Positions 13,360-34,192 of a DNA stretch of 40,347 nucleotides are shown here, in pieces. Under the pieces are notes generated by a model. The model was not told the origin of the DNA. It did no database searches and saw only the letters and a program-made list of their open reading frames with translations. The DNA is from a virus (lineage: Duplodnaviria; Heunggongvirae; Uroviricota; Caudoviricetes): the IMG/VR virus record IMGVR_UViG_2728369181_000008; one strand, given 5' to 3'. Within the stretch, counting starts at the first letter, position 1. Every line of letters begins with the position of its first letter. Made by a program: the position numbers and the translations under genes.

Positions 13360-13409
13360 NNNNNNNNNNNNNNNNNNNNNNNNNNNNNNNNNNNNNNNNN
13401 NNNNNNNNN
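13360..13409. other. Run of 50 N (assembly gap or masked sequence)
   Basis: Read directly; truncates a small ORF starting at 13332. Confidence 0.99.
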
Positions 13410-17836: not shown

Positions 17837-18067
17837 ATGAAATTTTATGAATTATCTTCTGATTCCCGATCTCAGGCCAAAATCACACTGGGTCAGTTCA
17901 TTGTGGCTCGGGCTAACGCGGGGGTGGATGATTTTGAAAATTTGGGGCATTGCATCGCTGCCGCGTTTATTGCGATGGAGCGCCATGAAAGCGCCCCTGA
18001 GGTTGGTGAGGGGCGTAGCGGGAACGGAATACCCGTTAATGGCGATCAAAACTCACTTCTTGATTAA
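17837..18067 (+). CDS. Hypothetical small protein (76 aa)
   Basis: RBS ggaga before ATG; overlapping alternative frames exist (17847..18092 plus, 17852..18049 minus), so the frame call is uncertain. Confidence 0.3.
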   Translation: MKFYELSSDSRSQAKITLGQFIVARANAGVDDFENLGHCIAAAFIAMERHESAPEVGEGRSGNGIPVNGDQNSLLD

Positions 18068-18331
18068 ATGCCATGAGCGATCTGCTGCTTGAGTGACTAG
18101 TACCCGAGGGTTCTTTTTGATTGTCCCAGCGATGGTTACAACTTCTTCTCGGACTGCGCGAGCAGATGCGTTTTTTTCGGCTGTGTACTCAGCGTCTGGA
18201 AGATAAAACCAGTTTCCTGCTCCATCTTGAATTTCGCGAAAGTATCTTCGGGATTCCATCGCCTCATGAAGGCGATTGTAGTCATCGGATGATGCACCCA
18301 CAAGCTCAACGCGGACAGTAAAACTAGCCAT
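18053..18331 (-). CDS. Hypothetical small protein (92 aa), minus-strand moron between late leader and lysis genes
   Basis: Strong RBS aaggagt before ATG at 18331; sequence MASFTVRVELVGASSDDYNRLHEAMESRRYFREIQDGAGNWFYLP…; no family recognised. Confidence 0.5.
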   Translation of the reverse strand: MASFTVRVELVGASSDDYNRLHEAMESRRYFREIQDGAGNWFYLPDAEYTAEKNASARAVREEVVTIAGTIKKNPRVLVTQAADRSWHLIKK

Positions 18332-18548
18332 ATATACTCCTTTAATTGATATGGTTACTTTTGGCGATTTAACGATATCAAACACGAGGATATACCGCCA
18401 GAAGCTTAATCTGGCACTCCATCTGGCCCCGGCATGTCCCAGAGCTTTTTCGTTGTTAGGCTCCAGAAACATCCTCGACTTCTTGTGAGCAAGCCTGAGA
18501 GCCTGAATCTTACATTTAGCACCATCCGAACTCTCGGAGGTGAGGCTT

Positions 18549-19772: not shown

Positions 19773-19857
19773 NNNNNNNNNNNNNNNNNNNNNNNNNNNN
19801 NNNNNNNNNNNNNNNNNNNNNNNNNNNNNNNNNNNNNNNNNNNNNNNNNNNNNNNNN
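19773..19857. other. Run of 85 N (gap/masked)
   Basis: Read directly. Confidence 0.99.
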
Positions 19858-19933
19858 TTGTCAGCGTTAGCACAGTGCAACAGGGATAAGGCTGATATCA
19901 GGACTTTTGAGAAAAACAGGGCAGCACAAACCA

Positions 19934-20119
19934 ATGGCACGATTAAACGTTGAAGTTATCCCACCAGACAGCGAAACGATGAACGGGATTTTTGCAGAGA
20001 TTGAACGTAAATATGCGCATCAGCCGATGACGCCAAAAGTTATCGATGAAATGCAACGCGAAGCGGCGCGCCTTGTACGGCGAGCGACAAACACGAAGGT
20101 TACGTTCGTTCGGGACTGA
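19934..20119 (+). CDS. Hypothetical small protein (61 aa)
   Basis: ORF MARLNVEVIPPDSETMNGIFAEIERKYAHQPMTPKVIDEMQREAARLVRRATNTKVTFVRD; weak RBS; a TTG start at 19907 is also possible. Confidence 0.3.
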   Translation: MARLNVEVIPPDSETMNGIFAEIERKYAHQPMTPKVIDEMQREAARLVRRATNTKVTFVRD

Positions 20120-20251
20120 CATTACAGAAGCTCCTTTGATAAGGGGCTTCGATAATGTCACTAAGAGGAAAAATTCATGGCAAAACCGGACTGGGAGGCC
20201 ATCGAAACGGCGTACCAGTGGCGGGTGAAGTATAGGGCATCTATTTATTCA

Positions 20252-20800
20252 TCATTTAAAAAAAGAGTTGTCCGGATAGGTTTCAATAACGGTTATGTTT
20301 GAAAGACGCGAGGGGTTAACCGTGAACTCATTTTCACCAAGATAACGACTGTGGGCATTGGGGCCAGCTAATATAGAACAGGCTGGAGCTTCAGCTCTTA
20401 ACAGCAAACCTGGTGATTTGTATGCATTCAATCCACGACCAAACTTCTCGGCGACTGAAATGTCCGTTGTCCAGCAAAATCCAATGAGCCCTTTATCGAA
20501 CCTGTCTTTATTTTCCCCCCGATAAAGTACAAGGCTGTCACCATCATATGTTGGCAATAAGAGCGTTAATAGTTTGAGGAGAATTGAGTCGTCGTTGATC
20601 TTTTCACGTATAAAGGCCCCAGACTCAACCCATTGACTATGGAATGAATTTTTCATGGCAATTGATACTGGCTTTGCGTTATCGATGCTTTTGATAAACT
20701 CAACCCATCTGTTCCGACTGTGAATGTAATCAAGAAATTTCCTCTCATCGGACACCTTCGATTGAGGGCGGTTATAAGCTGCGAAATCTTCTAACTTCAT
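20252..20800 (-). CDS. Hypothetical protein (182 aa) with ADP-ribosyltransferase-like R / S-T-like / E-x-E motifs; antisense moron between lysis genes and terminase
   Basis: RBS gaggaaatt before ATG at 20800; motifs AFIREK or LVLYRGE, then FCWTTDIS, then ENEFTVNP; visibly AT-rich relative to neighbours; start lies 19 bp from the divergent terS start. Confidence 0.55.
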   Translation of the reverse strand: MKLEDFAAYNRPQSKVSDERKFLDYIHSRNRWVEFIKSIDNAKPVSIAMKNSFHSQWVESGAFIREKINDDSILLKLLTLLLPTYDGDSLVLYRGENKDRFDKGLIGFCWTTDISVAEKFGRGLNAYKSPGLLLRAEAPACSILAGPNAHSRYLGENEFTVNPSRLSNITVIETYPDNSFFK

Positions 20801-20819
20801 AATTTCCTCAGGTATATCA

Positions 20820-21371
20820 ATGGCACTCACCGACAAGCAAGAAATGTTCTGTCGCGAGTACCTCATCGATTTAAACGCCACGCAAGCGGCTATTCGGGCG
20901 GGGTACAGCGCAAAGACAGCTAACCGTACCGCATCCGAAAACCTGTCAAAACCTGACATACAATTCAGAATCGCTGAACTGAAAGCGCAACGCAATGATC
21001 TTGTTGGTATTAATGCAGAATATGTACTTAATCGCCTTATTGAAATCGACCAGATGGATGTGCTCGACATTCTCCTGCAAAACGGTGAGCTAAAACCCAT
21101 CAAAGACTGGCCTAAGGTATGGCGCACAACGCTATCAGGAATGGATGTCGTGGAGATGGTATCCGCAGATAGCGCCGCACTTCTGAAGAAAATCAAATGG
21201 CCTGATAAGGTTAAAAACCTTGAGTTGCTTGGGCGTCATGTTTCTGTTCAGGCGTTTAAAGACAACATCAAAAATGAAGTGACTGGCGCTGATGGAGGAC
21301 CAGTCAGAACAGAAATTACCAACTTAACGCCGGAGCAGGCTGCAGAGGCGTATAGAAAAATGATGGGCTAA
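20820..21371 (+). CDS. Terminase small subunit (Terminase_2 type)
   Basis: N-terminus [30 protein letters not shown] typical of this family; directly upstream of the large subunit. Confidence 0.8.
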
Positions 21372-21373
21372 GT

Positions 21374-22996
21374 ATGCCGTTACCATTCCCCTTCGATTTT
21401 AAACATCCTGATTACCAGATGGTTTTTGAATGGCGGATGGAACGCTTACAGCGCATTCGCCAGAACCCTGAAATATTGCCAGCACTAAAACAGTTTTACC
21501 GAACCAACCCGGCTCAGTTCATCATCGACTGGGGCATGACAACGGACCCGCGTAATATTGATTATGGCCTGCCGGTGACCATTCCGTTTTTACTCTTCCC
21601 TAAGCAGGAGGAGTGGATCCACTGGATTATGGAACGCTGGGGCAATAGGGAGAATGGTATTACCGAAAAATCCCGTGAAATGGGGCTCAGTTGGACCGCG
21701 ATCGGACTGGCCTGCTCGCTTTGTCTCTTCAACAAAGAAATGGTTATCGGTTTCGGCTCCCGTAAAGAGGAATACGTCGACAGCACTGGTGACCCGAAAG
21801 CATTGTTCTGGAAGGCACGCAAGTTCGTGGAAACGCTACCTGTAGAGTTTCGCGGTTCGTGGAGTGAGAAGAAGCACGCGCCATATATGCGTGTTGAGTT
21901 TCCTGAAACTGGTGCCGTTATCAAAGGCGAGGCTGGCGATAATATTGGTCGTGGTGACCGTACCACGCTTTATCTGGTTGATGAGGCTGCATTCCTTCAG
22001 CGTCCTCTGCTGATTGATGCGGCGTTGTCACAAACGACGCGTTGCCGTATCGACCTGAGTTCAGTTAACGGCATGGCTAACCCGTTCGCTCAGAAGCGTC
22101 ATGGCGGGAAGATACCGGTATTCACATTCCACTGGCGGGATGATCCTCGCAAGGATGAAGAGTGGTATCGCAGGGAATGCGAGAAAATCGATAATCCGGT
22201 GGTGGTGGCACAGGAACTTGATCTGAACTACAGCGCATCAGCGGAAGGTGTTCTGATTCCATCCGAATGGGTACAGGCTGCCGTTGATGCGCATATCAAA
22301 CTGGGTATCCAGCCAACAGGCAAACGACTTGGCGCGATGGATGTCGCCGACGAAGGCAGGGACAAAAATGCCTTTTCCACCCGTCATGGCTTCCTCCTGG
22401 AAAATGTGCGGGAATGGTCCGGTGTGGGCAGCGACATTTATCAGTCCGTCGAGAAGGTTTTCGGCTTTTGCGAACAGGACAACCTCGAAGAGTTTCGCTT
22501 TGATGAGGACGGGCTGGGCGCTGGCGTTCGCGGCGATGCACGCGCTATCAACGAACTGCGTAACGCTGCGCGCCGACCGTCAATACTCGCCACACCGTTT
22601 CGAGGTAGTGGCGCGGTATTTGATCCGGATGATGAAGCTGTTCGCGGGGATAACGGGCAAGCCGCACGTCTGAACAAGGACTTCTTCGCTAACGCCAAAG
22701 CCCAGAGCTGGTGGCGGTTACGCAAACTTTTTCAGAATACCTGGCGCGCTGTGGTTGAAGGTATGGCTTACAACCCGGACGAAATCATCTCAATCAGCAG
22801 TAGCATGGCACTCAAAGATAAACTCATCATTGAGCTTTCGCAGCCGACCTATTCCATTAATGGTGTGGGAAAAATCGTTATTGATAAACAGCCTGATGGA
22901 ACCCGGTCGCCAAACCTTGCCGACTCGGTGATGATCAACTATGCCCCAATGAATTCAGCCCTGAACATCTGGGAGCTGCTAGGGAGACAGGCCTGA
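21374..22996 (+). CDS. Terminase large subunit
   Basis: 540 aa between small terminase and portal; Walker-B-like LYLVDEAAF; no canonical Walker A seen. Confidence 0.75.
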
Positions 22997-25614: not shown

Positions 25615-25653
25615 NNNNNNNNNNNNNNNNNNNNNNNNNNNNNNNNNNNNNNN
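25615..25653. other. Run of 39 N (gap/masked)
   Basis: Read directly. Confidence 0.99.
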
Positions 25654-32148: not shown

Positions 32149-34192
32149 ATGAACGCTGAAACTATTAAAGATTTCCTCGTCTCGCTTGGCTTCAGTGTGG
32201 ATGATGCTGGAGCAAAAAAATTCGGTTCTGTCCTCGCCGGTACAACTGCAAATGTCATCAAAATGGGGTTGGCCGTTGAAGGAGCTGCACTGTCCGTGGT
32301 GGCCTTTACGGCTAAGATTGCCTCCGGCCTGGATAATCTTTACTGGGCGTCACAGCGCACTGGCGCGACAGTCCAGGGAATTCAGTCTATTGGCTATGCG
32401 GTTTCGCAGGTTGGCGGCAGCGTGGACGCTGCGCGATCTTCTCTGGAAAGCCTCTCCCGGTTTATTCGTAACAATCCCGGGGCAGAGGGATTTCTGAATC
32501 GCCTGGGGGTACAGACACGGGATGCCAGCGGTAACATGCGTGACATGGCCGCTATTTTTACAGGTGTAGGCCAGAAGCTCAGCGGTATGCCGTATTACCG
32601 GGCTAACCAGTATGCGCAGATGCTGGGCATTGACGAAAATACCCTGATGGCTATGCGTCGCGGAGTGGGGCAGTTCAGCGCTCAGTATTCAGAAATGGTG
32701 AAAGCGATCGGATTTAATGCCGATCAGGCTGCCTTATCGTCAAACCGGTTTATGACCTCGCTGAAATCGCTCGGTGAAATGGCCGGGATGGCGCGGGACA
32801 AAATCGGATCGAATCTTGCGGACGGACTGGCGGGGCAGATTGATAACCTGCGCAAAAAGATNNNNNNNNNNNNNNNNNNNNNNNNNNNNNNNNNNNNNNN
32901 NNNNNNNNTTTCCCAAAATTGAAGTCACCATCACAAAGGTCATAAAAGGGATCCTCTGGCTGGGTGAGATAGTCGGGCGGGTAGCATTTCGGATAGTCGA
33001 TGGTGTCGGAGATATCATCGAGTGGTGGGGGAAACTGGATGCCGAAACGAAAACCCTGATAGAGGTTATCGGCGGTCTGGTTGTCGCCATGCGGATACTT
33101 AACTCTACTTTCTGGATGTCACCTATAGGGCTGATTACCGGTCTGATCGTGGCTCTCGGTCTCTTGTGGGAAGACTACAAAACATGGAAAGAAGGCGGTA
33201 ACAGTCTTATCGACTGGGAAAAATGGCAACCGGCAATAGATAAAGCGAAGGATGCGATCACCTGGCTTCGTGATCACCTTCTGGAACTAAAAGATGGTGT
33301 TGGCGGCTGGCAAAATGCACTGGAAATCCTCGGTACATTCATCGCGGGTGTCTGGGTATCCAAGGTTCTGGGGGCTTTCGGAAAAATATCAGGTTTACCG
33401 GTCCCACCCTGGCTTAAATTGTGGGCGCTTTACGCGGGCTATATTGTTAGTGACAGAGAAAATATTGCCGATAGCGCAAAATCTTCACTGAGGTATACGA
33501 AGCGAATTATCGGCGACACGCTGGCTGCTATTGGTATAAAAACAGATATCGGACGCAGGGATGTCAGTGAGGTCCGTGAATGGCCTGCGTGGATGGACTG
33601 GTTGCACGGGGGACCCGGTAAAGTTATCCGGCAGGGACAGAGTAACGGTGTAGTGCATGGCTCCAACGTCCAGCCCGACATCCCCGGCGGCGGCACTCTT
33701 GCTGATCGCAACAATAACCCCGGGAACATTCGCCCGGTGAGCGGTAAAGGGTTCCGGTTTTTCGAATCAGCGCTTAAGGGCTGGGAGGCGATGAAAAACC
33801 AGCTCATGCGTTACTTTACCGGGAAAACAACCGGACGGGCATTACAGACTATTCAGGATATTGTCAGTACCTGGGCCCCGGCAGGTGATAACAACGATCC
33901 GAAAAAGTATGCACAGGATGTTGCGAAATGGATGGGAGTATCACCGAATGCAATATTGAATCTTACAGATCCCCGGACTATGGGAGCATTGATGCAGTCG
34001 ATGGCGCGCAAAGAAGGTTATTCAAACTGGAACAGCCCGCTGGCGTATCAGGCCGCCGCTGGCAGCCTTAACCAGCAGACTGTTATAAATGTTCATGGAG
34101 TTAACAACCCTCAGGAGGCGGCTAATCTGATTGCTGACAAGCAGGGGGCTGTAAATGCCAGGGCGGTACAGCAATTGAAAGGGCCTGCGTGA
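32149..34192 (+). CDS. Tail tape measure protein (interrupted by an N-run)
   Basis: About 680 aa; helical N-terminal half, hydrophobic central segments, Gly-rich C-terminal region; RBS ggagagagga before ATG at 32149; reading frame across the gap unverified. Confidence 0.7.
32862..32908. other. Run of 47 N (gap/masked) inside the tape measure gene
   Basis: Read directly. Confidence 0.99.

Follow-up and report, generated by a model that had tools for sequence, protein, structure and literature searches.

A Predicted Stand-Alone ADP-Ribosyltransferase of an Unannotated Family, Carried as Single-Gene Cargo beside terS in a Lambdoid Prophage

Introduction

The subject of this study is a small gene in a DNA of 40,347 nucleotides from a virus of the class Caudoviricetes (IMG/VR record IMGVR_UViG_2728369181_000008); the whole of this stretch is referred to below as the window, and positions given without another designation are positions in it. 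An original prediction, made from the letters of the window, had singled out an antisense gene for 182 amino acids, equipped with a good ribosome-binding site and lying between the lysis cassette and the terminase genes, and had likened its product to ADP-ribosyltransferases (ARTs) of the R-S-E class. Here we describe this gene, which we call the ART-like gene, the unit in which it is carried and the large family to which its predicted product belongs, and we consider its possible role in conflicts between phages and bacteria.

The Gene and Its Cargo Unit

The genes surrounding the ART-like gene are those of a lambdoid prophage of Escherichia coli. In order, they encode an integrase, RecET-type early proteins, a helix-turn-helix repressor-like protein, replication proteins and an ORF6N-domain protein, followed by holin, endolysin and Rz/Rz1; the ART-like gene comes next, on the minus strand, and after it terS, terL, a portal-like gene and myovirus-type tail genes. 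Both its place between lysis and terminase genes and its antisense orientation agree with the prediction. Between Rz1 and the ART-like gene there are, in addition, an open reading frame (ORF) of 70 codons (19907-20119) and the fossil start of another terS (Table 1).

The ART-like ORF is a real gene. It could be translated as predicted, with a GAGGA element in front of its start codon, and the distance to the divergent terS was also confirmed, the ATG of the ART-like gene lying at 20798-20800 and that of terS at 20820 on the other strand, with 19 bp between them. The gene had been described as AT-rich, and this holds in direction only, as the departure is mild: the ORF has a guanine-plus-cytosine (GC) content of 42.3% vs 48.9% for the window, at the 11th percentile among equal-sized windows. 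It is under purifying selection, with ratios of nonsynonymous to synonymous substitution rates (dN/dS) of 0.23-0.29 against copies at 84-87% identity. Because the N-terminus MKLED... is kept in homologues down to 47% identity, the start giving 182 amino acids is preferred over that of a 204-residue variant annotated in part of the genomes. The full segment is present in 91 of 5,426 complete E. coli genomes, including enteropathogenic E. coli (EPEC) E2348/69 and BL21-AI/E. coli B, and in BL21-AI an identical 182-residue protein is encoded in a deleted prophage (NZ_CP047231.1 753865-754413, locus L052). In that remnant the region of a truncated DUF551 gene is fused straight to Rz1, the intervening region being gone, and its portal-like DUF1073 gene bears the name 'anti-CBASS protein Acb1 family protein' from the Prokaryotic Genome Annotation Pipeline (PGAP).

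The ART-like gene is a single-gene mobile cargo unit in a hypervariable antisense slot beside terS. Its left boundary is at about 20216-20222, where similarity to prophages and phages without the gene stops, and on the right homology resumes at 20819/20820, at the terS ATG; the gene is thus present or absent between otherwise adjacent genes and atypical in composition, as phage morons are. Many E. coli prophages carry the same terS (97-98% identity) with other antisense cargo upstream of it, for example a YodC-family gene with a DUF6953 gene in SCU-171 (L011 2480-2973) and a hypothetical gene for 78 amino acids in PD7 (L012 2740-2976). In enterobacterial prophages terS is always the right-hand neighbour of the ART-like gene.

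The sequence to the left of the unit records an exchange. Positions 20117-20216 match the terS of Klebsiella phage GZ7 over its first ~14 codons and the DNA in front of them; this terS begins MAKPDWEAIESAYRAG, and in E. coli FDAARGOS_1289 the same lysis module leads directly into an intact gene of this type, for 250 amino acids. The ORF of 41 codons at 20177..20302 that had been noted to overlap the 3' end of the ART-like gene does exist, and reads on from this fossil to the next stop codon; in view of the GZ7 alignment and the intact gene in FDAARGOS_1289 it is the start of a different type of terS left behind by module exchange. The simple insertion into an older gene that had been suggested to explain this ORF was rejected, as the data fit an exchange of the whole module from terS onwards.

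Table 1. Positions of the ART-like gene, its proposed motifs and the adjoining features in the window.
Feature	Position	Strand	Remarks
ART-like coding sequence	20252..20800	-	182 amino acids plus stop, ATG start; identical to WP_000762846.1
Shine-Dalgarno element GAGGA	20805..20809	-	4-5 nt 5' of the ATG; read off the sequence
Codons of Y93-R94-G95-E96	20513..20524	-	predicted strand beta-1 (residues 90-97); R94 is the proposed NAD-binding Arg
Codons of C109-W110-T111-T112	20465..20476	-	predicted strand beta-2 (109-111), then helix 114-122; proposed equivalent of S-T-S
Codons of E156-N157-E158	20327..20335	-	proposed E-x-E catalytic element, start of predicted strand beta-5 (158-161)
Variable cargo unit, ~600 bp	20217..20819		only ORF inside is the ART-like gene
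Divergent terS	20820..21371	+	homologues in related loci are of Terminase_2 type
Fossil 5' end of other terS type	20177..20218	+	~14 codons, MAKPDWEAIETAYQ; aligns with the terS start of Klebsiella phage GZ7

A Large and Unannotated Family

A word-indexed search yielded 49 homologues of the ART-like protein. An exhaustive profile search raised this to 1,008 representatives of 50%-identity clusters at E<=1e-3, or 679 at E<=1e-10, and the members it found are mostly free-standing proteins of 160-250 amino acids. Relatives occur in Methylomonas, Lysobacterales, Pseudoxanthomonas, an actinobacterial metagenome-assembled genome (MAG) and environmental metagenomes.

The prediction had not assigned the protein to any named family, rightly so: Pfam gave no match to it at E<=10, nor to a single one of 82 diverse members, no NCBIfam model matches it, and sequence and profile searches of the Protein Data Bank (PDB) returned chance matches only (E>1). 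PHROG 30882 does match and is labelled 'unknown function'. All homologues in the databases are named 'hypothetical', so that none is a characterised structural or housekeeping protein. None of the three outcomes set out beforehand as refuting the prediction came about. No paper on the family was found in the literature, with the protein accession included as a query. The family is previously unannotated, being absent from Pfam, NCBIfam and PADLOC, and it is in effect a new family of predicted ART-type proteins.

Predicted Structure and Conserved Motifs

An AlphaFold2 model of the ART-like protein, built on 41 homologues, has a mean predicted local distance difference test score (pLDDT) of 91.6 and a predicted template modelling score (pTM) of 0.83. 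It consists of five helices (residues 3-81) followed by an alpha/beta core (residues 90-175), and the first ~20 residues are of low confidence. Fold comparison of this model gave 27 matches to named ADP-ribosyltransferases or ART-fold NADases, among them KptA (score 6.7), TreX (6.5), Vis (6.1), diphtheria toxin, ART2.2 and TreTu (5.9 each), C3 and PARP15 (5.8 each) and AcrF11 (5.5), and also LT, ExoS, HopU1 and Scabin; the remaining matches were mostly to helical proteins and fell on the N-terminal half. A Foldseek search of the PDB again returned the ART superfamily, at weaker significance, and a search of the viral structures in BFVD returned uncharacterised phage proteins together with DarT and ART-PolyVal entries. 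The modelled core is thus ART-like, with scores that are moderate and very consistent, and the structure search proposed as a check of the original prediction points to the ART superfamily.

The three motifs that the prediction had pointed to are all present, as LVLYRGE (residues 90-96), FCWTTDIS (108-115) and ENEFTVNP (156-163), and they include the most conserved positions of the family. Among 82 aligned members, which share 25-50% identity with the window protein, R94, G107, W110 and I143 are invariant, position 111 is T in 56 members and S in 26, and G95 and A117 are each kept in 81, E156 in 80 and E158 in 75. The family signature may be written as [Y/F]-R-G-E on strand beta-1, G-x-[S/C/A]-W-[T/S] on strand beta-2, followed by a helix with a conserved A and F, and E-x-E-[Y/F]-x-V-D at strand beta-5. 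Of the two arginines that had been offered as catalytic candidates, R94 in YRGE has therefore gained and R65 in AFIREK was rejected, since it belongs to the helical N-terminal part and is less well conserved, in 71 of the 82 members.

The canonical ART core runs from beta-1 with its R, through beta-2 with an S/T residue and a helix, to a loop and then an E-x-E at beta-5. In the model, the order of the motifs and their placement on secondary structure match the R-S-E (cholera-toxin-like) signature, with the aromatic-Arg element of beta-1 in [Y/F]93-R94-G95 and the [Q/E]-x-E at the start of beta-5 in E156/E158. The putative counterpart of S-T-S is not literal: it is the variant [S/C/A]109-W110-[T/S]111, in which W and T/S are invariant. 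Fold, motif order and conservation together support the likeness to R-S-E enzymes that had been proposed. A metagenomic relative of 433 amino acids (P0168) contains the entire two-part ART-like unit twice in tandem within a single chain; the R and the W-[T/S] are present in each copy, and of the E-x-E only the second Glu is retained.

Comparison with Known ADP-Ribosyltransferases

Among the proteins closest in general character are ModA and ModB of phage T4, which are R-S-E enzymes of the E-x-E type, arginine-directed and acting on host proteins. Like the ART-like protein they are single-domain, phage-encoded and partner-free, with ~200 amino acids and an N-terminal region preceding the [W/Y]-R-G strand and the Ser/Thr motif. 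They differ in being early genes of a lytic phage, whereas the ART-like gene is antisense cargo of temperate prophages and is found also on plasmids, in integrons and in chromosomes. Alignment of the family profile with hhalign gave E 0.037 for ModA and E 0.087 for ModB, at a probability of ~1%, which does not establish homology; these weak alignments place YRG on LWRG of ModA and LYRG of ModB, and [S/C/A]-W-[T/S] on S-A-S and T-T-S, respectively.

Other ARTs share the fold and differ in catalytic residues or in the company that they keep. Arr is of the H-Y-D type, modifies a small molecule and has no sequence relation to the ART-like protein, and the R-H-R-R tetrad of Tpt1/KptA is not found in the family. 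The Rhs and type VI secretion system toxins TreTu, TreX and Tre1 form the C-terminal toxin domains of large delivery proteins, with an immunity gene invariably downstream, whereas the ART-like protein stands by itself, brings a helical N-terminal half of its own and lacks an immunity gene; the features of polymorphic-toxin ARTs (Rhs/PAAR Tre, Tse6, Tne2) were not seen, there being no Pfam domain in the 82 members and no conserved downstream gene. Nor was there a partner gene of the kind that characterises toxin-antitoxin and defence ARTs such as DarTG, CmdTAC and ParST: the ~600-bp unit of the window and a 607-bp integron cassette described below each hold a single ORF. LT-II and cholera-toxin A belong to secreted AB5 toxins, which have signal peptides and B subunits and are transcribed with the phage, in contrast to the cytoplasmic, solitary and antisense ART-like protein, whose N-terminus is hydrophilic and which has no co-transcribed partner.

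AcrIF11 is a diphtheria-toxin-like ART with the key residues H-F-H-D that is non-toxic and highly target-specific, occurs on phages, prophages and plasmids and is active in lysogens (PMC12421852). The ART-like protein resembles it as a small stand-alone ART on prophages and plasmids and differs in its R-[S/T]-ExE motifs, in the lack of sequence similarity and in that no link to CRISPR (clustered regularly interspaced short palindromic repeats) was seen at the gene.

Genomic Contexts of the Relatives

Scans with a narrower alignment located relatives at five loci in genomes and eight in metagenomes, and ~20 contexts were inspected overall. At least five different head-module backbones of enterobacterial prophages (the window, L004, L050, L059 and L072) have the gene in the same antisense slot, where it diverges from a Terminase_2-type terS and the two starts are 18-20 bp apart. 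Over three of these backbones the 5' ~130 bp of terS show ~85-95% DNA identity, as estimated by eye, and the ART proteins there are 47-49% identical. In a Pantoea prophage a late-strand gene beside the ART homologue (L004 7638-7919) has an Acb2/Tad1 hairpin domain, that of a sponge family directed against the cyclic oligonucleotide-based anti-phage signalling system (CBASS) and Thoeris, and an HNH gene and the lysis module come next; the interval from lysis genes to terS would therefore be a general hotspot for accessory genes. In one phage tail cluster, a relative lies co-oriented between tape-measure-distal and tail assembly genes.

Relatives occur also outside prophages. In a Lysobacterales MAG a relative with 38% identity is the only ORF of a 607-bp integron cassette. 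The integron (L016 5815-16381, MIDV01000104.1; found also in L008, L009 and L046) has ~20 attC-like repeats (CCTAACAATTC...AAGCCGA...TCGGCTTAA...GTGTTAGGC) at a spacing of 330-820 bp, and this call rests on repeat finding, a strict search for the attC pattern having recovered 3 of the ~20 sites. It is a sedentary chromosomal integron, in which the repeats are preceded by a divergent tyrosine recombinase gene, read as intI, that in the near-identical L009 lies next to mfd, and none of its cassette ORFs has a Pfam match. An ICE (integrative and conjugative element)-like island (L006) was considered as a further integron and rejected because it has no attC-like repeats. On three islands a relative is the first or nearly the first gene after a P4-type integrase, and solitary chromosomal relatives are present in Methylomonas and in another bacterium. 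No macro-domain, ARH or antitoxin-like gene, and no recurring partner, was found among the neighbours in any of the ~20 contexts.

Some copies are truncated (L034 8001-8545, 168 amino acids, and L037 5150-5673, 143 amino acids), which shows occasional decay of the gene in prophages and islands.

Proposed Function

Our favoured explanation, to which we give a probability of about 0.4, is that the protein is a compact, stand-alone mono-ADP-ribosyltransferase of the cholera-toxin-like (R-S-E) class, whose role in this prophage would be to protect the lysogen from other invading phages. R94 on beta-1 and [T/S]111 on beta-2 would hold NAD+, and E158, assisted by E156, would catalyse the transfer of ADP-ribose; the assignment to E158 fits the retention of only the second Glu in both halves of P0168. 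By analogy with other E-x-E enzymes, the acceptor would most likely be a protein arginine. Conservation in the family is strongest at the catalytic-motif residues, and this favours an active enzyme over a binder.

In every context inspected the gene lacks a companion gene for immunity, an antitoxin or a hydrolase, and for this reason the enzyme would be harmless to its carrier and no general poison in need of an antidote: it would either be restricted to a very specific target or lie dormant as long as its substrate is missing. As a lysogenic-conversion enzyme, it would modify a protein of the invader, or a host factor that matters, or becomes a substrate, only during infection, a logic which is also that of the e14 Lit protease. 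A lysogen-protecting role is suggested by the antisense slot that the gene shares with other cargo and by the integron, island-edge and solitary chromosomal copies. The gene had been put forward as a candidate toxin or defence/anti-defence effector; the lack of an immunity partner speaks against the toxin, and it stays a candidate for an effector in conflicts.

Because it has its own ribosome-binding site and is read against the late operon, the gene is probably active in the prophage and not co-expressed with the late genes. Its promoter would lie inside the 5' part of terS, where inspection by eye of the conserved region revealed weak promoter candidates only, not conserved across backbones. 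The 3' flank of the gene folds no better than shuffled sequences (z -1.45).

A number of observations weigh against this explanation. We know of no precedent for a partner-free defence ART, nor, to our knowledge, has any partner-free ART immunity been described in which a stand-alone enzyme marks an invader-dependent substrate; the known defence ARTs DarT and CmdT work with partner proteins, and the known stand-alone ARTs of phages and plasmids (T4 Alt/ModA/ModB and AcrIF11) serve the mobile element and not the host. E. coli B/BL21 is the classical permissive host for T phages, and since it encodes the identical protein any protection at native expression is not broad. PADLOC yielded no defence match for the protein apart from a chance-level one to RT_UG26 (E 0.024), and PADLOC and Pfam searches of the neighbours at three islands revealed no known defence system. 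A consensus scan of 19900-21400 found neither a sigma-70-type promoter nor a terminator for the gene. In GC-rich temperate phages relatives are co-oriented with their neighbours, between a DnaB-like helicase gene and the endolysin gene, and adjoin a DNA methyltransferase gene in one phage and a ParA-like gene in another, and long same-strand arrays of small unknown ORFs surround them on the ICE-like island and on plasmids of Burkholderia and Pandoraea that are conjugative or mobilizable; these early-gene and plasmid-array settings fit establishment or counter-defence genes better. The enzymatic assignment itself is weakened by the distance of 17 residues between the R and S motifs, which is much shorter than in ModA, so that the ModA alignment needs a 9-residue gap between the two, and shorter also than in C3-type enzymes.

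The main rival explanation is that the same stand-alone ART would serve the mobile element, ADP-ribosylating a specific host protein on entry and/or during lysogeny, and we regard such a counter-defence or host-reprogramming role as somewhat unlikely. The target might be an immune component, as Cas8f is for AcrIF11, or a transcription or translation factor, as for ModA/ModB. Known stand-alone ARTs on mobile elements work in this way, AcrIF11 being an example (PMC12421852), and ModA and ModB are of similar size and gave the only motif-consistent profile alignments. The plasmid and island arrays, the position between replication and lysis genes beside a DNA methyltransferase gene in GC-rich phages and the Acb2/Tad1-hairpin gene next to the Pantoea copy also favour it, and presence in the phage-permissive BL21 is no obstacle. 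However, an antisense orientation within the late operon is typical of lysogenic-conversion cargo, and an integron cassette, island edges and solitary chromosomal sites are unusual places for anti-defence genes. The catalytic residues are unlike the H-F-H-D of AcrIF11 (PMC12421852), the homology to ModA/ModB is not significant, and tblastn searches with the protein and one distant relative found no match in 50,697 sequenced phage genomes.

An ART-fold enzyme acting on something other than protein, whether an Arr-like detoxifier of small molecules, an enzyme acting on nucleic acid like DarT, Tpt1/KptA or Scabin, or a plain NAD+ glycohydrolase, is improbable in our view. Its attraction lies in the distribution of the family, which is like that of arr: one copy forms an integron cassette by itself, others are on plasmids, and solitary ones lie in the chromosomes of environmental bacteria. 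Yet the signature is R-[S/T]-ExE and not the H-Y-[E/D] of Arr, DarT and Tpt1, and an unregulated NADase or DNA modifier without an antidote should be toxic, whereas this gene travels alone; a Tpt1-like mechanism in particular was rejected because the conserved R-H dyad of the Tpt1 tetrad is missing. The lack of a partner gene likewise led to the rejection of a toxin-antitoxin module or a polymorphic toxin.

That the protein is a catalytically inactive ART-fold binder, such as a decoy or a regulator, would be in keeping with the remoteness of the fold match, the replacement of S-T-S by [S/C/A]-W-[T/S] and the fact that activity is deduced from motifs, and we consider it very improbable, as the positions most conserved over ~1,000 clusters are exactly those of the three catalytic motifs, which is what an enzyme would be expected to show. 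Less probable still is a toxin or virulence factor directed at eukaryotes and carried as a phage moron, in the manner of LT-II, cholera toxin, C3 or EspJ. LT-II operons do lie at the equivalent position, directly 3' of a phage lysis gene and 5' of terS (PMC3252337), the gene is present in EPEC E2348/69, and the low-confidence first ~20 residues of the model could be read in the same sense. Against it stand a hydrophilic N-terminus (MKLEDFAAYNRPQSKVSDERK), and hence no signal peptide, the want of a B subunit or delivery domain, the identical gene in BL21-AI and the relatives in Methylomonas, Lysobacterales, Pseudoxanthomonas, the actinobacterial MAG and environmental metagenomes.

Further Features of the Prophage

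The first ~80 bp of terS (20821-20901) share 95% identity with an unannotated stretch in P22-like Salmonella phages, which in P22 (AB362338.2 40681-40761, L057) is flanked by ORF25 and ORF80 and is situated upstream of gene 3 of P22 itself. This stretch is a fossil start of a Terminase_2 terS, and it marks the site as a recurrent recombination joint.

On the left flank, outside the cargo unit, a strong 44-nt hairpin (20117-20160) lies between the stop codon of the 70-codon ORF and the fossil terS start. Its folding energy is -25.5 kcal/mol (z -5.9) on the plus strand and -22.7 kcal/mol (z -7.1) on the minus strand, with a U-tract on neither side, and it could be a processing, termination or packaging signal. 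GZ7 has a different palindrome at the equivalent position, and the structure may persist through compensatory changes.

A second antisense ORF (18053-18334, minus strand), for 93 amino acids starting MASFTVRVEL..., is located just upstream of the holin gene. It has no Pfam match and a sub-threshold match to the YmfI phage family of NCBIfam (E 1e-15, 57.8 bits where the cutoff is 140), and may likewise be cargo oriented against the late operon. The window contains four masked runs of N of 39-85 nt (13360-13409, 19773-19857, 25615-25653 and 32862-32908), one of which falls within the Rz/Rz1 overlap just upstream of the locus.

Significance

ADP-ribosylation is a recurring weapon in conflicts between phages and bacteria and between bacteria and their hosts, and few bacterial players are known, most of which were found singly. 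We suggest, with some hesitation, that the ART-like protein may be the founding member of a widespread family (~1,000 clusters) of immunity-free, single-protein ART conflict effectors, which would act either in protection against phages or in switching off host immunity. The antisense slot upstream of Terminase_2-type terS genes could be searched for more accessory genes, and since BL21-AI and E2348/69 both encode the identical protein, its role is directly testable in standard strains. As a large family whose genes are carried singly by prophages, integrons, islands and plasmids, these proteins would be easy to characterise and could provide a new, potentially general, effector or tool.

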